Shown piece after piece: positions 7,776-19,115 of a stretch of DNA of 64,000 nt (position 1 is the stretch's first letter; each line of letters begins with the position of its first letter). A program made the translations under genes and the position numbers. The stretch is from Candidatus Parvarchaeum sp. (GTDB lineage Archaea; Nanobdellota; Nanobdellia; Pacearchaeales; GW2011-AR1). Below the pieces are notes generated by a model. The model made no database searches. It had not been told where the DNA came from and worked only from the letters and a program-made list of their open reading frames with translations. The stretch spans positions 28,864 through 92,863 of the forward strand of contig DYFY01000002.1 in the NCBI GenBank assembly GCA_020724955.1, given 5' to 3'.

Positions 7776-8286
7776 CTAGCGATTAAACAAGCCGTAGGGC
7801 TCGGGCAAGTAAGAAAGAATATCTTGAATACAAACATCTAATGGTCTGTTTATGTCTATGACAGTTCCATAATCAAATTCTGTTGATTTCTTATATACGG
7901 CTCGTGCGGCGTCTGCACCATGTGTTTTACCTCGTTCTTCATCTCTTGCTATGCAGACTTCCAACGGGGCTTTTAGAGTAAAAACATGATGCGGAAAATC
8001 CAATCTTTTGATTAAATCATCAATTTGAGATTTCCAGTAAAAATTGCCATCAAACACAACAGGTCTTTTGCTATCCAAAATCCGCTTTGCTTCAGGAGCA
8101 ATAATTTCATTTGCCTTGATGAAACTCTTCTGGGAAATGTATCCCTCTTCTTTTTCTTCCGTAAGATTGTGTTCATCAAGGATTCTACTACGGCAAAGTA
8201 TTTTGCGTTTAAATTTTGGATAGCTTTTCAGCTATTGTGGATTTTCCGCATCCTAATGGTCCACGAATGATAATGTAAAAGCCCAT
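7776..8286 (-). pseudogene. P-loop kinase/ATPase gene with a frameshift
   Basis: ATG at 8286 gives MGFYIIIRGPLGCGKSTIAEKLSKI then TAA; the rest (..RILDEHNL...VVFDGNFYW...) continues in another frame after an A/T run. Confidence 0.6.
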
Positions 8287-8528
8287 AGAATGTTGTAAAC
8301 GATAGCCGTATATAAGTTTTGCCGAAGCCCTCTAAATAAAAAGGCCAAAGCAGTTTTAACTCACCTTTTTTGAAAAATTCCATTTTGTTCCCTCTTAAAC
8401 TTATAACAATTTTAACACTTATTAACTTATCTTAAAAGCTGTGACTTGCCGAAAGTTATTTAAACGACAACTCCCTAAATAATTATATACAAGCCCCAGG
8501 CTTGCCCTGCAAACCTGGGTTTTTCAAA

Positions 8529-9074
8529 ATGATAAAAGTAGCTATTTTTATTGATGGTAATAATTTCTATTTTGGATTAAAAAAGTTATATGGCGATGAT
8601 TTTAAGGCAATGAAATTCAATTTTGAGAAGTTCTGTAATTTTATAGCTAATAAAAGAGAAATAGCTAATATATTCTATTACAACGCCCCCTTAGATATCA
8701 CCAAGGATATTGAAAAATATAAACTCCAACAAAGGTTCTTTGATAAGATTAGTAGAATTCCAAAATTTAATCTTGTTTTGTGTAAAATGGTTAAAAGGAG
8801 AATTAAAGGAACAAATGAATTTTATTATGTCCTCAAAGAAGACGATATTCATATGGCAGTTGATTTAGTTAAGGGGGCTTTCAAAAATACATATGATGAA
8901 GCGATTCTCGTTTCTGGAGATGGCGATTTTGTGCCAGCTGTTAAAGTTGCAAGAGAAGAGAAGAAAAAAGTTGAGAATATCTATTTCAAGAAAAGTGCCT
9001 CCACAAATTTAAAACAAAATTGTGACAAGTCTTTTCTGTTAAGAAAAGAGCTTCTTGATAAATTTTTTGATTGA
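8529..9074 (+). CDS. NYN-domain (LabA/DUF88-like) putative ribonuclease
   Basis: VAIFIDGNNFYFG..., ...EDDIHMAVDL..., ILVSGDGDFVPAV acidic motifs; first ATG at 8529 (track start is TTG). Confidence 0.8.
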   Translation: MIKVAIFIDGNNFYFGLKKLYGDDFKAMKFNFEKFCNFIANKREIANIFYYNAPLDITKDIEKYKLQQRFFDKISRIPKFNLVLCKMVKRRIKGTNEFYYVLKEDDIHMAVDLVKGAFKNTYDEAILVSGDGDFVPAVKVAREEKKKVENIYFKKSASTNLKQNCDKSFLLRKELLDKFFD

Positions 9075-9194
9075 AAAGTGCCCAATTAAATTCTCTGCGA
9101 AGCAGGCTATTTGTGCCGAAGGCACCGAGGCGATTCACATTTGACAACAATTTCTCCTATTGGATGGGAGAGAATTCTTAATTTGGACGCAATC

Positions 9195-9358
9195 TGGGAA
9201 CATCGCGATTAAGCGACCTGAAAGGCTCGAGGTGGAGAAATTTTTCCCTCGACGAAGTCAGAGCTGGAAAAATTGCGGAACGCTCGAGTGTTTTTGCGTA
9301 GCAAAAATATGGGTGGATGAGCCTGCAAGGCGAAGTAACCGCTTAATCGCTGTTAGTT
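9195..9358. repeat. Hairpin site S1 (R2 type): TGGGAAC...GTTAGTT
   Basis: AACA 9199-9202 pairs with TGTT 9351-9354; GCGATTAAGCG 9205-9215 pairs with CGCTTAATCGC 9340-9350; near-identical copy at 11149-11313. Confidence 0.7.
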
Positions 9359-9555
9359 TCGTCTGACCAACGGGAAGACCTGATTTTTAATGCAATGGTC
9401 GGCGAAGCCGAAAAAATCAGAGTTTGAGAGCCCGAGCTTTTTGTCAATAATCTGCTTTAGCAGACAATAGTTTAGGGGTGCCCGCCATTCTATTACTAAT
9501 TTAGAAGTGGTTACACAAGCGAAAGGTTTATAAATGATTTCGAATTAGCTAAATT

Positions 9556-9921
9556 ATGAAAAATACAACAAGTATTGAAGGTGTAGTGGACTCTGTTAAT
9601 ATTGACAACAGAAGCAATAATTATTGTTATTTAAATCTAGCCGTAGTTATAGGTGACGGTTCTACAAAAGAAATAAAATTTCCAATTCTCAAGAGAGGAA
9701 CAAATCCTAGATTGAATGGGATTGAAGAGAATGGAACATTTTTAAGAGAAGCTATCTCTTCTTCTCTATTAAATCAAAGGGTAGCATATAAGCTAGAATC
9801 AGACGTTGATGCTGGCAGTTCTGGGTTTTCCTATTCATCACATGAAAGGCATCAACTTGATATCTTGAGTGGTCCATTAGAAGGTAGAAGTTGTTTAGCA
9901 GACGAATACGATCCTCTTTAA
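9556..9921 (+). CDS. Hypothetical protein (cassette ORF)
   Basis: 121-aa ORF with ATG start, enclosed by three nested inverted repeats. Confidence 0.5.
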   Translation: MKNTTSIEGVVDSVNIDNRSNNYCYLNLAVVIGDGSTKEIKFPILKRGTNPRLNGIEENGTFLREAISSSLLNQRVAYKLESDVDAGSSGFSYSSHERHQLDILSGPLEGRSCLADEYDPL

Positions 9922-10007
9922 ATTTCTATTTTTTTGACGATAAAGTCAAGACTATCTGTTGCGAAGCAACTGCGGGCACCCCGTTTTTGCGAGGGCTCTC
10001 AAATTGA

Positions 10008-10100
10008 AACCAACATCCCATATTAAAGAAAGTTTTCTGTTAAGAAAATTTGGGAGAGCAACGTTTAGGGTACCTGTGAACTCTTTAATATATGTTCTGT
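10008..10100. repeat. Hairpin site S2 (R1 type): AACCAAC...GTTCTGT
   Basis: AACA 10012-10015 pairs with TGTT 10093-10096; ATATTAAAGA 10020-10029 pairs with TCTTTAATAT 10082-10091. Confidence 0.65.
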
Positions 10101-10223
10101 GCCTTTTTTCCTCAATCATTAGAGTGGAAAAAGCGAGCAATGATAATTGCTAAGAGTTTTGCTCCTAATCAGGGCTGGATGGTTGGGGTTGTGGATGGGT
10201 AGAAAAAGGAGCAAAATTGCATA
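10011..10223. repeat. 213-bp unit, copy 1 (same as 13634-13846 and 13847-14059)
   Basis: No differences seen by eye; ORF-track antisense peptides from the copies are identical over the shared part. Confidence 0.85.
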
Positions 10224-10357
10224 GAACATCGCGATTAAGAGAAGTTGTTTGCAGTAATTTTAATTCGTCCATAGGCAAACAATTTGGGCTAATTTCTGGT
10301 CGGCACGAAGCAGATTTGCGAAGCAAAAAGAAATTACCTCTTAATCGGCTGTTGGGA
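10221..10357. repeat. Hairpin site S3 (R3 type): ATAGAAC...GTTGGGA
   Basis: AACA 10225-10228 pairs with TGTT 10350-10353; CGATTAAGAG 10232-10241 pairs with CTCTTAATCG 10338-10347; internal stems TTGTTTGC/GCAAACAA and TAATTTCT/AGAAATTA. Confidence 0.65.
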
Positions 10358-10535
10358 GATTTTTCTCGTAGAGAAAAACACGAGCTGACGCACTAAGCGT
10401 CCTCGTGAGTAAAAAATTATCTTTGGGCGGGGGCGGAGGTGGAAGCTCCGCAATTAAATAGGAAAAATTATCGTGCTATTTTGAAAAATTAGGGTTGGGC
10501 GAAAGTTTTAAAAAAAGATAAAAAGCTACTAACTT

Positions 10536-10961
10536 ATGGAATCGAATGTATTAGAACAAAAAATTGATGAAATTTTAGACTTGAATAAAAGAGATAAGTC
10601 CAATAGATTCAATAGATTTAGAGGAGAACTTTTCATACTGGAAGAAGCTTATGAAGAAAATCCAGACAATTTAACAAACGAACAAAAGAAAAAATTATCA
10701 AAACTTGAAATGAAATTGGGACATTTGAGATTAGGAATGGCTGGATTTTTTGCTGGAGCCGCCGTTGGTTGTGGCATAGCAACTTACGCTAATGTTCACG
10801 ACATTGTTGAGAATGGAGTAACTGCTGCAAATTTATTAAACTCAACATTTTGGGGTGTAGAAACATTACTAACAACTGCGGGCTCTGCCATATGGGCTTA
10901 TCTCTCTTCGATTCCATATAGAAAAGGAAGAGATATTAATTATTCTGAAGCCCAAACCTAA
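10536..10961 (+). CDS. Hypothetical membrane protein (cassette ORF)
   Basis: 141 aa; charged N-terminal part, Gly/Ala-rich hydrophobic C-terminal part. Confidence 0.5.
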   Translation: MESNVLEQKIDEILDLNKRDKSNRFNRFRGELFILEEAYEENPDNLTNEQKKKLSKLEMKLGHLRLGMAGFFAGAAVGCGIATYANVHDIVENGVTAANLLNSTFWGVETLLTTAGSAIWAYLSSIPYRKGRDINYSEAQT

Positions 10962-11148
10962 GAAAAATTTGGGTGAGTGAAACGAACTGCTTAACCTTTG
11001 TTATAAGAAGTTTCAATTTCTTTCCGTTTTCGTTTATGGGTCAAGCAAAGTTTTTCTATTAATTTTCACGATAATTTTTCAGTATCTGGGTGGGAAGAAA
11101 GATAATTTTTTATTTCCCCGAGCCGAAGAATGAGGCGAGTGGTGTCAA

Positions 11149-11313
11149 TCCCAACATCGCGATTAAGCGACCTGAAAGGCTCGAGGTGTAGAAATTTTTC
11201 CCTCGACAAAGTCAGAGCTGGAAAAATTGCGGAACGCTCGAGTGTTTTTGCGTAGCAAAAATATGGGGGGATGAGCCTGCAAGGCGAAGTAACCGCTTAA
11301 TCTGCTGTTCATT
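11149..11313. repeat. Hairpin site S4 (R2 type, second copy): TCCCAAC...GTTCATT
   Basis: 4 substitutions and one 1-nt indel versus S1; identity starts at AAC and stops at GTT. Confidence 0.7.
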
Positions 11314-11515
11314 TCTCCCGAATACTTGCAGGGATTACATTTTAGTGCAACGATGCCGAAGGCAAAAATGTAAAGTTAAATCGGACTTTGGGATGGTGGG
11401 AACACCATTGGTTTTTATGTATTAGAGGATTCGCCGTCTTTTTGCTTCTTTTTTCTAAAAAGAAGATGGGGCACTTTTAGGAATCTTTATAAGTTTGTTA
11501 TTGATTTATTTAATT

Positions 11516-12010
11516 ATGAAGCCAAGGCATTTAGGAATATCAATAATAATTGTTAGCATAATTGTAATTGGTATGCTTTTTTATTTCAATTCTATCTTAA
11601 ATAAACAAAATTTAGAAATCTGTTCTGAAAGTTGCGGAACACAAGAAGGAGCTTCTTGTTCTATTGAATCGTGTCCTTTTAATGCAGAACATAATAACAG
11701 CGAGGGTTTTATTTTTATTATGGGCTTGCTCGTTGCATTTTTAGGAGGAATTGGTTTTTATCTCACTCTGACAAAAGCGGAAAAACTAATTGAACAAAAA
11801 GAATATGATTTAACCAAATTAAATAATGAAGAAAAGGATATTTTCCTGTTTATCAAAGAAAATAAAGATAAGGGAGTTTATCAGAGTAATATCGTTGAAA
11901 AATTCAATATTCCAAAATCAAAAGTTTCAAGAATATTGGATAAAATGGAAAGATTAGAAATTATTGAGAAGAAAAGAAGGGGAATGACAAATATTATTCT
12001 TTTGAAATAG
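11516..12010 (+). CDS. Membrane-anchored winged-helix regulator with an extracytoplasmic Cys cluster
   Basis: TM, then CSESCGTQEGASCSIESC, then TM, then C-terminal HTH (VYQSNIVEKFNIPKSKVSRILDKMERLEIIEKKRRG); first ATG at 11516. Confidence 0.55.
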   Translation: MKPRHLGISIIIVSIIVIGMLFYFNSILNKQNLEICSESCGTQEGASCSIESCPFNAEHNNSEGFIFIMGLLVAFLGGIGFYLTLTKAEKLIEQKEYDLTKLNNEEKDIFLFIKENKDKGVYQSNIVEKFNIPKSKVSRILDKMERLEIIEKKRRGMTNIILLK

Positions 12011-12079
12011 GACTAGTTTCAGCCAGTAGAACTAGTTTCACGTTACACTTATAAGCTGTAATTTTAACTTATTTTAATC

Positions 12080-12607
12080 ATGAGTCAGGAAATTAAGATA
12101 AAAAAGAGAACTTTATTCATTTCATTGGCAATAGTCTTTAAATTTGCTGTTTTGAGTAAAGCAAATACAAATTCTTGTGGCGGAACATTTAATTATGTTG
12201 ATTCAAAATCGCCGGACCAGAGAATCCAAGGTTCGTGTTGCGGACCTATGAATTTTCATAGATATACTGAACAAATAGAAGCACTGAAGGAATATTCAAA
12301 ATACAAGAAAATTCCTTCTGACCCTTATGATGTATCTGTTGCATTAGCCCAAGAATTATTAGATTATCAGAAAGAAATAATTTTAACAAATGAAAAACAA
12401 TTAATTTATGATGAAGCAATGGACATTTCTCATGAAGGCGGACCTTGTTGCTGTAAATGCTGGCATTGGTATGCTTACGAGGGCTTGGCAAAATATTTGA
12501 TAGTTGAAGAAGACTTTACTGCTGAACAAATAGCGGAAGTCTGGGATATTTCTGATGCTTGTGGAGGAAGCGGACATGTTGAAGGGGGAGGACATGGTCA
12601 TACATAG
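12080..12607 (+). CDS. Secreted or anchored Cys- and His-rich protein
   Basis: N-terminal hydrophobic segment; SCCGP, GGPCCCKCWHW, CGGSGHVEGGGHGHT motifs. Confidence 0.5.
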   Translation: MSQEIKIKKRTLFISLAIVFKFAVLSKANTNSCGGTFNYVDSKSPDQRIQGSCCGPMNFHRYTEQIEALKEYSKYKKIPSDPYDVSVALAQELLDYQKEIILTNEKQLIYDEAMDISHEGGPCCCKCWHWYAYEGLAKYLIVEEDFTAEQIAEVWDISDACGGSGHVEGGGHGHT

Positions 12608-12628
12608 ACAAATGAAAGGAGGTAAAAA

Positions 12629-13369
12629 ATGAGTGAAGCAACTTTAACAATAAGGAAAGACGCATTATGGAAATATAGCACTTTTTTACTTTTGGCTATA
12701 TTAGTAATTGGAGCTTTTTTTGTTTTCACAGGAAATAATAGCGGAACAACTGGAAACAATGTTGTTGCTCCAACACAACAACCAACACAGCCATCACAAG
12801 TTGAGGCAAGTGCGGACGATGATGCGTTTTTGGGAGATAAAAATGCTCCTGTTGAAATAATTGAGTTTTCTGATTATCAGTGTCCATTCTGTAGGAAATT
12901 CTGGACAGAAACTTTGCCACAAATAAAATCCGAATACATTGATACAGGAAAAGTTAAATTTGTGTATAGAGATTTTCCTTTAGATAGTATTCACCCCGGA
13001 GCTACACCTGCGGCTGAAGCTGCCGAATGTGTAAGGGATCAAGGTGGAGATGAAGCCTATTTTGAAATGCATGATAAGATTTTCTCAGAACAGAATATTC
13101 TTGATGGTGGAGACCCAATTTCTGGACCTGTAAGAGGAACAGCCCAGTTTGGAACAACTGAATTGAAAAAATGGGCTCAAGATATTGGCTATGACATTGG
13201 AAGCTGTCTTGATTCTGGAAAATTCAGAAGTGAAGTGCAAAATGATTTATCAGATGCGCAATCTGCTGGCGGAAGAGGAACTCCGTATTTTGTAATTAAT
13301 GGGAAGCCCTTAAGTGGAGCACAGCCTTTCAGTGCATTTAAACAGGTCATTGACGCAGAATTAGCTTAA
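12629..13369 (+). CDS. DsbA-like thiol:disulfide oxidoreductase, membrane-anchored
   Basis: TM anchor, thioredoxin-fold active site FSDYQCPFCRKFW, C-terminal GTPYFVINGK. Confidence 0.8.
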   Translation: MSEATLTIRKDALWKYSTFLLLAILVIGAFFVFTGNNSGTTGNNVVAPTQQPTQPSQVEASADDDAFLGDKNAPVEIIEFSDYQCPFCRKFWTETLPQIKSEYIDTGKVKFVYRDFPLDSIHPGATPAAEAAECVRDQGGDEAYFEMHDKIFSEQNILDGGDPISGPVRGTAQFGTTELKKWAQDIGYDIGSCLDSGKFRSEVQNDLSDAQSAGGRGTPYFVINGKPLSGAQPFSAFKQVIDAELA

Positions 13370-13630
13370 TTTTATTTTTTCTTTTTTATTTATTTTTTCT
13401 AAAAGTGCCCCAATAAAAAACTGAAAAATATTTGGATGTAACGAAGTGAAATCTTTTATCGTTTGTTAGGCGAAATTTTAACAAATTTCATTGGTTTTTT
13501 CTAGGTCCGATAAAAGAAGTATTTTTCTGTTTTTATCCTCGCTGAAAGCGACTATTTGTCCGAAGGACGACGGCGAATCCTCATCTTTAGGGGCGGGTGG
13601 TCGGGGGATTTCAAAGTCCGATTTAATTGA

Positions 13631-13723
13631 AATGAACATCCCATATTAAAGAAAGTTTTCTGTTAAGAAAATTTGGGAGAGCAACGTTTAGGGTACCTGT
13701 GAACTCTTTAATATATGTTCTGT
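13631..13723. repeat. Hairpin site S5 (R1 type): AATGAAC...GTTCTGT
   Basis: Same hairpin as S2; only the 4 nt 5' of AAC differ. Confidence 0.65.
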
Positions 13724-14059
13724 GCCTTTTTTCCTCAATCATTAGAGTGGAAAAAGCGAGCAATGATAATTGCTAAGAGTTTTGCTCCTAATCAGGGCTG
13801 GATGGTTGGGGTTGTGGATGGGTAGAAAAAGGAGCAAAATTGCATAGAACATCCCATATTAAAGAAAGTTTTCTGTTAAGAAAATTTGGGAGAGCAACGT
13901 TTAGGGTACCTGTGAACTCTTTAATATATGTTCTGTGCCTTTTTTCCTCAATCATTAGAGTGGAAAAAGCGAGCAATGATAATTGCTAAGAGTTTTGCTC
14001 CTAATCAGGGCTGGATGGTTGGGGTTGTGGATGGGTAGAAAAAGGAGCAAAATTGCATA
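13634..14059. repeat. Two exact tandem copies of the 213-bp unit
   Basis: GAACATCCC recurs at 13634 and 13847, and GAACA again at 14060; period 213. Confidence 0.9.
13844..13936. repeat. Hairpin site S6 (R1 type): ATAGAAC...GTTCTGT
   Basis: Second tandem copy of the R1 hairpin. Confidence 0.65.
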
Positions 14060-14116
14060 GAACAAAACGGATATTAACCTTTTAGAGGTTATATATCCGT
14101 TTAAAGGATGTTTAGT
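14057..14116. promoter_or_regulatory. Terminal site S7: ATAGAAC, 15/16-nt inverted arms around a 7-nt spacer, GTTTAGT (candidate recombinase core site)
   Basis: AAACGGATATTAACC (14065-14079), TTTTAGA, GGTTATATATCCGTTT (14087-14102); about 50 nt upstream of the recombinase ATG. Confidence 0.45.
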
Positions 14117-14150
14117 AACCTTTTTATATTTTAACCGGCTTTTGCATTTA

Positions 14151-14987
14151 ATGGAAAAAGAAGAGCAGCTTCAAAGATTAACTGAACATCTACAGCTGAA
14201 AAATTATTCCAGAGAAACACAAAAAACATATTTATTTCATGTTAAAAAATACATTGAATTTCTTGGCGGGGAAAAGCCGTCTATTGAAAATGCAAAAAGA
14301 TACGTCCTGAAAAAACTTGAGACAAAAGATCCTTCATCTGTCCATCATCTCATATTCGCAATAGAATATTTCTTCAAAAACATTCTCTCTCAAAAAATAT
14401 ATATTCCAAAACCCAAAAGAAACAAGACTCTTCCAGCAATACTCACAAAGGAAGAAATAGCTTTAATCGTTAAATCAACAACAAACATAAAACACAGATT
14501 GATAATAAAGCTTCTCTATGGATGCGGGCTGAGAGTCTCTGAAATAATAAGTCTGAAAAAAGAAGATATTAATTTTGAAGAAAACCTAATCCATATAAAA
14601 TTGGCAAAGGGTAAAAAAGACAGGTTTGTAAAAATACCTGACTCTCTTACACAAGAACTCATGGCATTTTGTAATCTAACCGGCACAGAGATACTCTTTC
14701 CCTCTGCCAGGAGCGGGAAGCTGACAAAAAAGACAATCACAAAAATAGTCCAAAATTCTGCAAAAAAAGCCGGAATTAAAAAAAGAGTTTACCCTCATTT
14801 GCTCAGACACAGCTTCGCCACGCATTTGCTCGAACAAGGCACTGATTTGAGAATAATTCAAAAACTCCTTGGACACAGCGATATAAAAACCACTCAGATT
14901 TACACACAAATATCTCAGGCTTCAATAAAAAATATTAAAAGCCCTCTCGACAGCATTAATCTTTATGGAACCGAAGCTAACAATTGA
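14151..14987 (+). CDS. xerA: Tyrosine recombinase, XerA/XerC/XerD-like
   Basis: N-terminal SAM-like core-binding domain; GLRVSE (Arg), KGKKDR (Lys), HLLRHSFATHL (H..R), LGHSDIKTTQIYT (His, Tyr); first ATG at 14151. Confidence 0.85.
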   Translation: MEKEEQLQRLTEHLQLKNYSRETQKTYLFHVKKYIEFLGGEKPSIENAKRYVLKKLETKDPSSVHHLIFAIEYFFKNILSQKIYIPKPKRNKTLPAILTKEEIALIVKSTTNIKHRLIIKLLYGCGLRVSEIISLKKEDINFEENLIHIKLAKGKKDRFVKIPDSLTQELMAFCNLTGTEILFPSARSGKLTKKTITKIVQNSAKKAGIKKRVYPHLLRHSFATHLLEQGTDLRIIQKLLGHSDIKTTQIYTQISQASIKNIKSPLDSINLYGTEANN

Positions 14988-17166
14988 AAAGCCTGTAAAG
15001 CAAAAACCAAAACTTTCAGAACTGACAAAAATAGAGGTTCCTGGCAAGCCGATTCCTGCAGAAAATCTCGAAAATGATGTGGTAGAGAAAAAAAGAAAAA
15101 AACCAGGAAAAAGGAGTCCAAAGTCCTCAAGTTTGGCTACTTCTATAAAACAGCCTGAAAAAGATTCAGTCCTGATAATAACTGAAAAACCACAGGCAGC
15201 CGAAAAAATCGCCAACTCCTTAGGGCAGGCCAGAAAATATGTTGAAAACCGGGTTCCATTCTACGAAGTCTCTATTAATGGGGAAAACATAATAGTTGCT
15301 TCTGCAGTTGGGCATTTATTTAATCTTACTTATGCCTCTGGAGAAAGGGGCTGGCCGGTCTTCAAAATGCTTTGGGAGCCAAGTTTTAAGAAAGCAAGTT
15401 TTACAAAAAACTATTATGACTTGCTAAAAAAACTCTCAAAAAGAGCAAAATCATTTGTTGTGGCTACTGATTATGACATCGAGGGAGAGGTAATTGGATG
15501 GAATGTTTTAAGATTTATAGCCCGACAGCAAGACGCTAAAAGAATGAAATATTCTACTTTGACAAAACCAGAGCTTTTGAAATCATACCAAAATGCACTC
15601 CCTACGCTAGACTGGGGGCAGGCTTACGCTGGCGAAACAAGGCACCGAATAGACTGGCTTTATGGAATAAACCTTTCTCGCGCACTAATGTCTGCAATAA
15701 AAACCTCCGGCTCTTTCAAAATTCTTTCAATTGGGAGAGTGCAAGGGCCTGCCTTGAAAATTATAGTAGACAGAGAGAGAGAAATCTCCGGTTTCAGGCC
15801 TGTTCCATATTGGCAGGTCATAGCTTTGGTGAAGGGTGTTGAACTAAAACACTCCAAAGATATTTTTGACAAAAAAGAACTAGATGATTTCAAGAACTTA
15901 AAATCAGGCTCATGCACTACAAAAATCTCGGAGGAAATTTTACATCCTCCTCACCCTTTTGATTTGACAAGTTTGCAGAGAGAATCATACAATCTTCACG
16001 GAATTTCTCCTTCCAACACACTCCGCATCGCACAGTCGCTCTACCTCTCAGGACTTATTTCATATCCGAGAACATCTTCTCAAAAAATACCAAAAGAAAT
16101 AAATCCCAAATTAATTCTCGAAAATTTAAAGAAGAAGTTTCCGGAACTAACAAAACACATTTCAAGATCAGAGCCGATAGAGGGGCAAAAATCAGATCCT
16201 GCGCATCCATCTATATTTCCCACTGGAGAATTCAAAAAACTTGAAGGTGATGAGAAAAAGATATATGAATTAGTTGTTAGAAGATTTATATCCTGCTTTT
16301 CCGCAGATGCAAAATTAGACAGAAAGCGCATAACTCTCAATGCAGAAGAAAAAAAATTCACTGCATCCGGAGTGAAAATAAAATTTCCCGGATGGCTTTC
16401 AGTTTATCCTGCAAAAATAGAAGAATCAGAACTCCCGACTCTTGAAGGAAAACAAAAAATAGACGAGATAAAATTTCTGGAAAAAGAAACGCAGCCTCCA
16501 AAACGCTACACTCCTGCGTCTTTGGTAACCTTGCTTGAAAAAAAAGGCCTCGGAACCAAGACAACAAGATCAATGATAGTTGACACTTTATTCAACAGAG
16601 GTTATTTAGAAGGAAAATCCATTCAGGCCACACCACTGGGAATCAGGCTGATAGAAGCTCTTGAGAAATACTCTCCTATAATAATAGACGAAAACTTGAC
16701 AAGAGATTTGGAAAAGAAAATGGAGGAAATCCAAAACTCAAAATCTGGCTTTGAAGAAAAGGAAAAAGCAATAATAGAAAGTGTAGAGCGCCTGATAACA
16801 GATATTTCAAAAGAATTCAAAATTCATGAGAAAAACATTGGGGTCTCATTGCAGGAGGGCACCCAAGAACTCCGCGAACAGCAAAACGAGCAAAACACAA
16901 TAGCTAAATGTCCTGTCTGCAATCTTGGACAACTGGCAATAAAATATTCTAAAAAAACAAACAAATATTTTGTTGCATGCAACAGGTATCCTGAATGCAC
17001 AGCAACATACAATCTCCCTCCAAACGCACTAATAAAAAACACAGGAAAACTCAACGAAGATGGGCTTCCGATTTTAGTTGCAATCAGAAAAGGAAGACGC
17101 CCATGGGAATTTCCATTTGATCCGCACTGGAAAGAAAAACAAAACCAGGATAAAAAGCAAAGTTAA
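14965..17166 (+). CDS. topA: DNA topoisomerase I, type IA (archaeal TopA) with a Lys-rich N-terminal extension
   Basis: Toprim VLIITEKP...DYDIEGE, active-site ISYPRTSS, C-terminal zinc ribbon CPVC...CNRYPEC; overlaps the xer 3' end by 23 nt. Confidence 0.9.
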   Translation: MEPKLTIEKPVKQKPKLSELTKIEVPGKPIPAENLENDVVEKKRKKPGKRSPKSSSLATSIKQPEKDSVLIITEKPQAAEKIANSLGQARKYVENRVPFYEVSINGENIIVASAVGHLFNLTYASGERGWPVFKMLWEPSFKKASFTKNYYDLLKKLSKRAKSFVVATDYDIEGEVIGWNVLRFIARQQDAKRMKYSTLTKPELLKSYQNALPTLDWGQAYAGETRHRIDWLYGINLSRALMSAIKTSGSFKILSIGRVQGPALKIIVDREREISGFRPVPYWQVIALVKGVELKHSKDIFDKKELDDFKNLKSGSCTTKISEEILHPPHPFDLTSLQRESYNLHGISPSNTLRIAQSLYLSGLISYPRTSSQKIPKEINPKLILENLKKKFPELTKHISRSEPIEGQKSDPAHPSIFPTGEFKKLEGDEKKIYELVVRRFISCFSADAKLDRKRITLNAEEKKFTASGVKIKFPGWLSVYPAKIEESELPTLEGKQKIDEIKFLEKETQPPKRYTPASLVTLLEKKGLGTKTTRSMIVDTLFNRGYLEGKSIQATPLGIRLIEALEKYSPIIIDENLTRDLEKKMEEIQNSKSGFEEKEKAIIESVERLITDISKEFKIHEKNIGVSLQEGTQELREQQNEQNTIAKCPVCNLGQLAIKYSKKTNKYFVACNRYPECTATYNLPPNALIKNTGKLNEDGLPILVAIRKGRRPWEFPFDPHWKEKQNQDKKQS

Positions 17167-18794: not shown

Positions 18795-19115
18795 AACTTT
18801 CTTGGGATTCTAAATTTTATAAGTTTTTCTACCGCCTGAACCTCAAACTTTGGATTTTTCAGTTTTGGCAAAAGATACACTAAAATCCAGCCTCTATCGA
18901 AAGAAACTAACAGAAATTTAACGAAGTTTATTCCGACCTAAAAAAATAAATTTGGATAGAAAAACCTGCAAATATTTAGGAACCGTTAAATTCCAACGCT
19001 AGTTAGAACTATCTCCAGCTGCTGCTAACTTGATATTTAGTGAACTAAAAAACCAACTATTTTATATCCAGCCACGAGCTGAAGAAGGATAAATTTCTTA
19101 CACGTTCAGTTAAAA

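Follow-up and report, generated by a model that had tools for sequence, protein, structure and literature searches.

Xer recombinases are the presumed ancestors of integron integrases. Xer enzymes are also hijacked by phages: CTX, VGJ and TLC use the host XerCD recombinases at dif, and in CTX the attP site is formed by the folded plus strand, a single strand is exchanged by XerC and the junction is completed by replication. In archaea, xerA/dif modules are known (PMC5357621); the dif site of Pyrococcus abyssi reads ATTGGATATAA|TCGGCC|TTATATCTAAA (PMC2958812, PMC4640148), and P. abyssi XerA cleaves at the borders of its spacer (PMC3646895). Archaeal integrons have been described by Ghaly et al. 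2022 (PMC9668308), who report 539 attC sites and six IntI integrases, all with the IntI domain; most of the arrays are clusters of attC sites lacking integron integrases (CALINs), and a few metagenome-assembled genomes (MAGs) of Pacearchaeales and Woesearchaeales carry 2-8 attC sites and no IntI. Here we analyse a stretch of 64,000 nt from Candidatus Parvarchaeum sp. of the Pacearchaeales (assembly GCA_020724955.1, contig DYFY01000002.1, positions 28,864 to 92,863 of the forward strand), hereafter the window, in which hairpin-forming sites (S1 to S7) separated by short gene cassettes lie upstream of a tyrosine recombinase gene, xerA. On balance we consider it probable that this locus is a XerA-associated, integron-like cassette platform on the chromosome, in which XerA would be the enzyme and single-stranded DNA (ssDNA) the substrate.

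Six of the sites are members of one family:

9199-9354 (AAC to GTT), plus strand: S1, 156 nt; covariance model 46.7 bits, E = 4e-9; ssDNA fold of -31.7 kcal/mol
10012-10096, plus strand: S2, the 85-nt minimal site; covariance model 61.9 bits
10225-10353, plus strand: S3, 129 nt; covariance model 51.6 bits
11153-11309, plus strand: S4, 157 nt; covariance model 36.1 bits
13635-13719, plus strand: S5, a copy of S2; covariance-model match
13848-13932, plus strand: S6, a copy of S2; covariance-model match

When AAC...GTT hairpins whose inner box pairs perfectly over 10 bp or more were searched for, six were returned from the 64 kb, all of them inside the array; 20 block shuffles gave 0-1 (mean 0.1). 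The original prediction, made from the sequence alone, had placed seven hairpin sites here, and all seven stand at their places with refined AAC and GTT limits. In agreement with this, a covariance model built from 49 short family members (74-92 nt), whose training set held S2 (identical to S5 and S6) and not S1, S3 or S4, recovers S1 to S6 at full length on the plus strand, with E values from 5e-13 to 2e-6. The predicted near-identity of S1 and S4 inside unrelated flanking DNA was also found, at 98%, with one indel as described and three substitutions instead of four. The indel interrupts the inner box of S4 (CGCTTAATC-T-GC), which pairs imperfectly, so that the perfect second box attributed to S1 to S6 does not apply to S4.

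The S family is present in at least 100 metagenomic and MAG loci from Pacearchaeota/Woesearchaeota-type archaea, and a pattern scan of metagenomes yielded at least 120 stretches, with arrays of up to nine co-oriented sites. Within these loci, 116 hallmark sites lie on the array strand and one on the opposite strand. This orientation separates the array from the pdif modules of Acinetobacter plasmids, with which it had been compared: both consist of gene modules bounded by Xer-related sites, but a pdif site is a 28-bp XerC/XerD site and successive ones alternate (inverted orientation), whereas the S sites are hairpins of ~76-165 nt, all direct, and the analogy is not supported.

The 49-member alignment gives each site the layout AACAT-bulge-P1-[AAGT..P2..ATTT]-GGG-P3-P1'-TGTT, which describes a three-way junction and in which AACAT, AAGT, ATTTGG and TGTT are invariant or nearly so. 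P1, the second box of the original prediction, comprises 11 bp; P2 opens with A-T, A-T and G.T pairs and is followed by the GGG linker and P3. P1 and P2 covary, and double compensatory changes were found in 18 of the 26 predicted pairs. P1 pairing was a criterion for selecting the sites and does not count as independent evidence, whereas the pairing of P2 played no part in the selection. All 49 of 49 sequences keep the G.T pair of P2, G.T exceeds A.C among the non-Watson-Crick pairs of P1 (50 vs 13), and in 82 of 116 sites 2 nt are unpaired on the 5' arm against 0 on the 3' arm. Of the features of attC, the S sites show AAC and GTT, R and L boxes and hairpin folding. Their geometry departs from it: the 5' arm has a bulge of 2-3 nt and the 3' arm 0-2 nt, and the L box comprises 10-11 bp. 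The attC-like R- and L-box hairpins first described were retained and refined to three-way junctions with invariant motifs. They differ from attC in that the S bulge (2-3 nt) sits on the 5' arm beside the predicted cut, the extrahelical bases of attC being on the other arm, and in that the tip of the S site is a conserved three-way junction with invariant AAGT and ATTTGG(G).

Irregular sites were also recorded. An identical 32-nt S-type 5' half (ATTGTCGCATAACATCGCTGATTAAACGAAAT) with no 3' partner occurs in locus L029 (~9185-9216, minus strand) and at the end of contig L026; the opposite-strand half lies just upstream of a normal S site. Two sites are chimeric, with mismatched 5' and 3' halves of P1 (L058 848-931 and L061 ~9487-9640), and the 3' P1 half of the L058 site equals that of the neighbouring site at 139-222, which suggests exchange inside sites, or decay. 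Separately, two classes of element were considered for the sites and rejected: shufflon or invertible segments, as no inverted copies were seen, and a miniature inverted-repeat transposable element with target-site duplication, as the two flanks of a site show neither direct repetition nor mutual complementarity.

Comparison with related genomes puts the breakpoint of every site on its 5' side, at AA|C. Locus L001 (sample SRR6488410, same strain) encodes an identical XerA and is 100% identical to the window from position 14061 rightwards, over 10.9 kb; to the left of 14061 it is unrelated, and both sequences read ...AACAAAACGG at the point of divergence. Inside the window, S2 and a 120-nt ORF-less spacer (without an open reading frame, ORF) make up one 213-nt unit present in three copies (repeats at 13625 and 13838), which precede S3, S6 and S7 respectively, and the identity stops at AACA. 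Between species, positions 11150-13640 of the window (S4 and a body with MarR, Cys-rich and DsbA genes) are 81-88% identical to positions 290-2864 of L029, whose XerA is 66% identical; homology begins at this site's AAC and extends as far as the following AAC, and different cassettes adjoin it in the two loci. An S3-like site with the start of its body is also found in L029 (2951-3139), at a different position of the array. Concomitantly, MAG contigs L015 and L024 start exactly at the AACAT of the xerA-proximal site, and many other relatives' contigs end just upstream of xerA. A search for alternative contexts of five window proteins gave L001 as the sole variant, the other contigs being colinear and breaking at repeated sites. 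Independently of one another, the L001 divergence, the S2-unit copies, the cassette shared with L029 and the contig starts locate the crossover in AAC(A), where a site begins 5'. Cassettes differ and are reshuffled between relatives, and we regard site-specific cassette mobility at AAC as very probable.

Because the breakpoints fall at AAC on the 5' side of the sites, a cassette consists of a site and the DNA that follows it. We rejected the opposite definition, a body with its downstream site, since the identical ORF-less body follows S2-type sites three times and precedes three different sites; the AAC-to-AAC homology between the window and L029 rules it out as well. The cassettes of the window are:

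9201-10013, plus strand: S1 cassette, with a 121-aa ORF (9556-9921) that has no Pfam match
10014-10226, plus strand: S2 cassette, ORF-less
10227-11154, plus strand: S3 cassette, with a 141-aa ORF (10536-10961) that reads as a membrane protein and has no Pfam match
11155-13636, plus strand: S4 cassette, with genes for a MarR/DUF7343 protein (11516-12010), a Cys-rich ORF (12080-12607) and a DsbA-like thioredoxin (12629-13369)
13637-13849, plus strand: S5 cassette, ORF-less
13850-14062, plus strand: S6 cassette, ORF-less

Cassettes that are ORF-less or carry 1-3 small ORFs had been foreseen. As a description this holds for the window only, where the ORFs all point towards xerA, the opposite of the integron convention; cassette genes in the relatives face either way, and a body may be empty or hold 1-3 genes in either orientation. 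The median cassette length is 966 bp, and the cargo includes DsbA-like, MarR, NYN, MFS transporter, methyltransferase and toxin-antitoxin-like genes.

The two ends of a cassette can pair with each other. Related loci supplied 79 non-redundant pairs of consecutive sites. In 29 of these junctions (37%, vs 3.8% at random) the 6 nt that follow GTT are complementary at all six positions to the 6 nt before the next AAC, and in 57% (16% expected) at five or more, while the two flanks of one same site pair at the null level only. The individual end complementarities noted in the window at the outset were all reproduced: 8/8 for 10350/11149, 10/10 for 11306/13629, 9/10 for 9351/10006, and 9/10 plus a G.T pair for 10093/10219. 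The rule extends into the resident site S7, or its counterpart, in the window, L009, L010, L021, L022, L025 and L029. Beyond the immediate flanks, duplexes between the first and last 200 nt of the cassette body, with the terminal 8 nt excluded, have a mean energy of -31.5 kcal/mol for cognate 5'/3' ends and -17.6 kcal/mol for non-cognate ends (p = 3e-24, n = 52). Folded as ssDNA, the reconstructed circular junction of the S4 cassette gives a single long hairpin of several blocks, and S4 stands at the tip of it (-117.8 kcal/mol, z = -11.2). Circularisable cassettes joined within the AAC/GTT triplet had been proposed; covariation, the flank rule and the strain and species differences at AAC support the proposal, and the complementarity of the ends is retained in the relatives above the null. 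The circular intermediates themselves would be a step of the mechanism proposed below.

These observations bear on the molecule that folds. In the non-coding DNA of the array, mini-hairpins with a GNA triloop (C-GAA-G, C-GTA-G, T-GCA-A) number 13 on the plus strand and one on the minus strand, that is 2.25 per kb on the plus strand of the array, compared to ~0.2-0.6 per kb in the rest of the window. Triloops of the d(GCGAAGC) type are a DNA motif rather than an RNA motif. Given the strand-specific G.T pairs, the DNA-type GNA triloops and the self-complementary cassette ends, the most economical reading is that the folded plus strand, as ssDNA, would be the recombination substrate. One could instead take the S elements for structured RNAs (processing signals, cis-regulators or small RNAs), the cassette ends for RNA processing stems and the DNA variation for indel turnover, since in the window the folded strand is that of xerA and all ORFs, and an invariant G.U with covarying helices is typical of RNAs. 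We judge this highly improbable. No S site has a match in Rfam 15, be it at the gathering threshold or at E <= 5, the loops are of the DNA type, and a bulge-helix-bulge RNA splicing motif was rejected, as each site has a single bulge and the flanks pair without a second one. The cargo genes face both ways: of the 91 cassettes that have an ORF of 50 aa or more, 41 carry their longest one on the plus strand and 50 on the minus strand, and a role of the S sites in 5' untranslated regions therefore fits poorly. In the S4 cassette, the 5' complementary block reads as lying upstream of a TATA-like box, and would thus be outside that cassette's mRNA. Finally, breakpoints at AAC and cassettes reshuffled between genomes are not what such RNAs would leave.

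Next to xerA the array ends in a site of another kind. The features of this region are:

14052-14112, plus strand: S7, the resident (attI-like) site, with arm, crossover and palindrome; AAC to GTT at 14061-14112
14052-14062, plus strand: dif-arm-like stretch of S7, ATTGCATAGAA
14062/14063, plus strand: crossover AA|C of S7
14065-14102, plus strand: palindrome of S7, AAACGGATAT...ATATCCGTTT
14113-14135, plus strand: TAGTAACC-TTTATATA box, between the resident site and the xerA start; the probable xerA promoter, conserved in several relatives such as L029, L010, L014, L009, L006 and L007
14151-14987, plus strand: xerA, 278 aa, starting 35-39 nt after S7

Sites of the S7 type have the form ATTG-N5-AA|CAT followed by a palindrome with arms of 9-16 nt and, usually, a spacer of 6 nt. 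Almost all of 23 relatives have a counterpart upstream of xerA; in almost all relatives its distance to the start of xerA is 74-122 nt. From the first A of AAC to the start of the palindrome spacer there are 18 nt in 12 of the 19 loci with a called palindrome (19 nt in three more). The comparison thus supports S7 as a resident site distinct from the cassette sites S1 to S6; the original prediction, right about its location, had listed it together with the other six hairpin sites.

The recombinase belongs to the archaeal XerA family. Its protein scores 230 bits with the NCBIfam model XerA_Arch (NF040815; cut-off 220), while the integron-integrase model TIGR02249 matches in two pieces at 210 bits, below its cut-off of 265. 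It is colinear with the XerA proteins of P. abyssi (4A8E, E = 4e-52) and Thermoplasma acidophilum (5HXY, 7e-40). Against the Vibrio cholerae integrase VchIntIA (2A3V) the alignment is split (query 9-167 and 191-267, chain 8-174 and 242-318), and ~44 residues of the IntI-specific insertion are absent. The expected Xer-type enzyme without the IntI insertion was thereby confirmed, at 278 aa where about 279 had been read and at 35-39 nt from S7 where about 35 had been given, and the locus is, as anticipated, not a classical integron, because its recombinase is of the Xer type and has no additional IntI domain around patch III. The closest relatives of this XerA, 53-79% identical, are encoded in MAGs labelled Pacearchaeota/Woesearchaeota (DPANN). 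The 64-kb window holds no other tyrosine recombinase gene and no xerA paralogue.

The sites and this gene go together beyond the window. S sites lie upstream of xerA in related MAG contigs as well, and in 1.02 Mb from 80 xerA-bearing loci the covariance model gave 27 matches at E <= 1e-3, all on the strand of xerA and upstream of it, with none in a bacterial locus. Cleavage of one strand at a short motif next to a hairpin recalls IS200/IS605-type elements and the REP/RAYT systems (repetitive extragenic palindromes and their associated tyrosine transposases). From this one may ask whether the gene of the enzyme that moves the cassettes lies elsewhere, the enzyme being perhaps of the HUH type or a different single-strand nuclease or transposase, with the proximity of xerA incidental or a target preference; in one locus (L183) there is no xerA within 5 kb downstream of the last S site. 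We find this very unlikely in view of the uniform position and strand of the 27 matches, the short and conserved distance between resident site and xerA in almost all relatives, a dif-arm-like motif exactly at the crossover, and the fact that no such gene was found in or beside the arrays examined.

That motif is the 11 nt that precede the crossover, A-T-T-(G/T)-n-A-n-n-T-A-A|C according to position matrices from site sets not selected for ATTG. Its outline is that of the P. abyssi and Thermococcales dif arms, and each S site looks as if it carried one dif arm, with a predicted cut where the breakpoints fall: the cut is placed at AA|C because the arm matches the P. abyssi dif arm in outline and P. 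abyssi XerA cuts at the spacer borders. Together with the membership of the recombinase in the XerA family, a cut at an arm/spacer border and a xerA-adjacent palindrome with a 6-nt spacer, this relates the locus to archaeal XerA/dif. It differs in that dif is a single 11-6-11 site, whereas here many one-arm sites are followed by hairpins, and in that there is no skew switch at the S7 locus. The canonical two-arm dif pattern is not enriched in the window (3 matches, 1.9 expected). A half-dif arm with a spacer (ATTGnAnnTAA|CATnnn) could also be recombined as duplex, with the hairpins and complementary ends serving termination, replication priming or nucleoid structure; the arm and the cleavage position fit a canonical double-stranded dif half-site, and XerA acts on duplex dif (PMC2958812, PMC3646895). 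Such double-stranded recombination nevertheless appears quite unlikely, as it leaves the complementarity of arm and cassette start, the covariation of P1 and P2, and the one-strand G.T pairs and GNA triloops unexplained, and the inverted copy expected as right arm is absent.

Taken together, we tentatively propose, giving it a little under an even chance, an independently evolved "Xer-integron" of Pacearchaeota/Woesearchaeota-type DPANN archaea, in which a housekeeping XerA without an IntI-like domain would capture, stack and release self-folding single-stranded cassettes by one-strand exchange at a half-dif arm plus three-way-junction hairpin. In the platform judged probable above, XerA would bind the 11-nt arm ATTGnAnnTAA at the end of the cassette body and cut the plus strand at the inner border of the arm, AA|C. 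One-strand exchange between an S site and S7 would give insertion, that between two S sites excision, and replication would complete the junction, as in attC x attI recombination of integrons and in CTX-phage integration at dif. In the excised circle the arm would pair with the 6 nt after the GTT of the site and the remaining non-coding cassette ends would pair too, so that the paired ends would rebuild a duplex "R box" beside the "L box" P1. New cassettes would enter at S7 and displace older ones away from xerA.

Several observations weigh against the platform model. The link between XerA and the array is positional only. Five positions in the middle of the arm are variable, an oddity in an arm recognised by its sequence; the conserved ATT of the arm would remain unpaired once the strand is folded; and P1, as second "arm", does not repeat the first in inverted form. 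Although the S7 palindrome has dif geometry, the S7 crossover falls 16 nt to the left of its spacer, which leaves the role of the palindrome unexplained; GC skew does not switch at the array, so that a position of S7 at a replication terminus is not obvious. The near-identity of S1 and S4 comes with flanks that differ on both sides, which needs an extra exchange or a second crossover at GTT. Finally, some junctions break the flank rule, for example 7394/8224 in L009 and 996/2507 in L026.

As a separate observation in these two loci, the DNA before an internal S site equals the DNA before the resident site over 14-44 nt (8224 and 9858 in L009, 875 and 2507 in L026), and the cassette between the duplicated stretches violates the pairing rule; it looks as if insertion had duplicated the arm region, or as if an event of another kind had taken place.

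The array could alternatively be a selfish pile-up resembling the integrative mobile elements exploiting Xer recombination (IMEX), in which each S site with its cargo hitch-hikes into a chromosomal dif, S7, through the housekeeping XerA, leaving the array as a graveyard. The likeness to IMEX and CTX would lie in the use of a host Xer, the replication-completed strand exchange, a folded strand that mimics a two-arm site with a bulged centre, and successive integrations that stack beside a resident site. Also in keeping with it are the ordinary archaeal family of xerA, the only tyrosine recombinase gene of the window, the dif geometry of the S7 palindrome, the resemblance of the pre-crossover arm to a dif arm, the long conserved non-coding ends that cassettes own, and the existence of xerA/dif modules in archaea (PMC5357621). 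We consider such a pile-up unlikely all the same. The units are neither phages nor plasmids: no replication, packaging or transfer genes were found in the cassette units examined, which sets them apart from IMEX, and many units are ORF-less. Among 2.9 million viral contigs of IMG/VR, 51 pattern matches were obtained, about the number estimated by chance, and none has the closing P1/TGTT in S geometry, so that there is no evidence of a viral or plasmid source for the S sites. The crossover lies outside the palindrome spacer, and the S sites are one conserved family, archaeal and served by a single XerA. The chemistry is the same as in the platform model, the difference being mainly who benefits.

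With respect to integrons, the correspondence becomes apparent when the locus is read on the minus strand, where it has the classical layout of a divergent recombinase gene, a resident site adjoining it, and cassettes ending in ...G|TT. As in integrons, short cassettes with accessory cargo form an array, each with one imperfect-palindrome site (AAC...GTT, R box, unpaired or bulged spacer, L box, variable tip), and the crossover would be at AA|C of one ("bottom") strand. The S7-type site stands upstream of xerA as attI stands beside intI, and the strain difference at its AAC points to an insertion there. The start of a cassette is, in the minus-strand reading, complementary to the bases preceding the AAC of its own site; core/inverse-core complementarity is known in integrons, but the flank sequences of the S arrays are much more variable and the cassette ends are complementary over ~200 nt. 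Beyond the recombinase and the geometry of the sites, the differences comprise the 11-nt dif-arm-like motif that precedes the S-site cut and the cargo: integron cassettes are mostly promoterless, co-oriented and driven from the promoter Pc, whereas genes of the S arrays face both ways and have upstream regions of their own. Archaeal CALINs are treated in PMC9668308 as classical attC sites whose IntI is missing or acts in trans, and xerA linkage, a resident site, a dif-arm motif and a three-way-junction family are not described there. Some of its Pacearchaeales and Woesearchaeales CALINs may be S arrays. No publication in the literature searched connects arrays of this kind with xerA, and none gives an account of the resident site, of a dif-like arm, of the family of three-way junctions or of cassettes that are self-complementary.

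Two features of cassette bodies were noted in passing. The search for circular cassette contigs returned only L153 (FLOH01001630.1, 10,040 nt) with a terminal repeat, a direct repeat of 125 nt ending at AACATCGG. This contig has seven S sites, an MFS transporter, a methyltransferase, a DUF4395 protein and a toxin-antitoxin-like pair, and no recombinase or replication gene; the repeat is ambiguous between a circular multi-cassette molecule and a duplicated cassette that halted the assembler. Besides, G-rich plus-strand motifs of the GGGGCGGGTGGTCGGGGG or TTGGGTGGGA type occur 30-90 nt before the arm, at the 3' ends of many cassette bodies (13590-13607, 9161-9172, 11086-11094 and 10168-10198 in the window, 642-659 in L001), and recur in L006, L010, L011, L022 and L026; they may be G-quadruplexes or protein sites.

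The array region (8.4-14.1 kb) has housekeeping genes on both sides. Its surroundings include:

left flank: an RsmB-like methyltransferase gene and a DM13 gene
7776-8383, minus strand: P-loop kinase-like gene, with ORFs 7776-8078, 8012-8179 and 8228-8383 in different frames
8386-8392, plus strand: TGTTCCC, a doubtful candidate start of a first cassette, with a 7-nt pairing to GGGAACA (9196-9202) only
8529-9074, plus strand: NYN-domain gene (Pfam NYN, E = 2e-26)
right flank: xerA, type IA topoisomerase, ribosomal protein L15e and tRNA genes
14965-17166, plus strand: type IA topoisomerase gene (Pfam), overlapping the 3' end of xerA by 23 nt
18909-19000, plus strand: solitary decayed S-like element (match 18913-18994; 35.8 bits, E = 2e-6, model positions 7-78)

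The P-loop kinase-like gene is spread over at least two frames and is therefore probably a pseudogene; a 73%-identical homologue in metagenome locus L139 is intact and lies in minus orientation between two S sites. As it may belong to the oldest, now fixed cassette, the left border of the array is uncertain. No S site lies to the left of 8386, and that region is 100% identical in three other samples. The TGTTCCC/GGGAACA pair is quite possibly due to chance, since a 7-mer is expected ~0.05 times (an estimate) in the ~1.4 kb upstream. The NYN gene, homologues of which were found in other contexts in L007, L022 and L029, reads either as a distal, stable part of the array or as flanking DNA. GC skew takes positive values (+0.08 to +0.22) in the array alone, at 8001-14000, and is negative to its left and right, a pattern that reflects the G-rich plus strand of the cassettes and not a replication switch.

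The topoisomerase gene directly follows xerA in 12 related loci (L007, L008, L011-L013, L015, L016, L018, L019, L021, L022 and L024) and does not in L009, L010, L025, L026 and L029. Type IA enzymes act on single-stranded DNA, which makes a functional link to the array conceivable, and the topoisomerase is a possible partner of the cassette system. Some 4 kb downstream of xerA, the element at 18909-19000 keeps P1, AAGT and ATTTGG and lacks the 3' TGTT and the ATTG arm; it is the sole good covariance-model match in the window besides S1 to S6, and may be the fossil of a former array or an off-site insertion.

If the proposal is true, a working cassette system that depends on an ordinary XerA and has a dif-like arm at the crossover would be a present-day case of the transition from Xer to integron, or a convergent solution, and would show concretely how recombination of the integron type can arise from Xer/dif, the descent long assumed for IntI. 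Many archaeal "CALINs" would then be complete systems and not orphan integron arrays, which would explain why IntI is absent from most archaeal "integrons" (PMC9668308). In many MAGs the assembly breaks upstream of xerA, and the cassette locus would be the cause of this as well. With a short (~80 nt), sharply defined site and a small enzyme, the system would be experimentally tractable, and structure-specific recombination by a recombinase of 278 aa is possibly a useful tool. For DPANN archaea, whose genomes are tiny and which depend on hosts, a locus of this kind, devoted to gene capture, would rank among the main routes by which accessory genes arrive.

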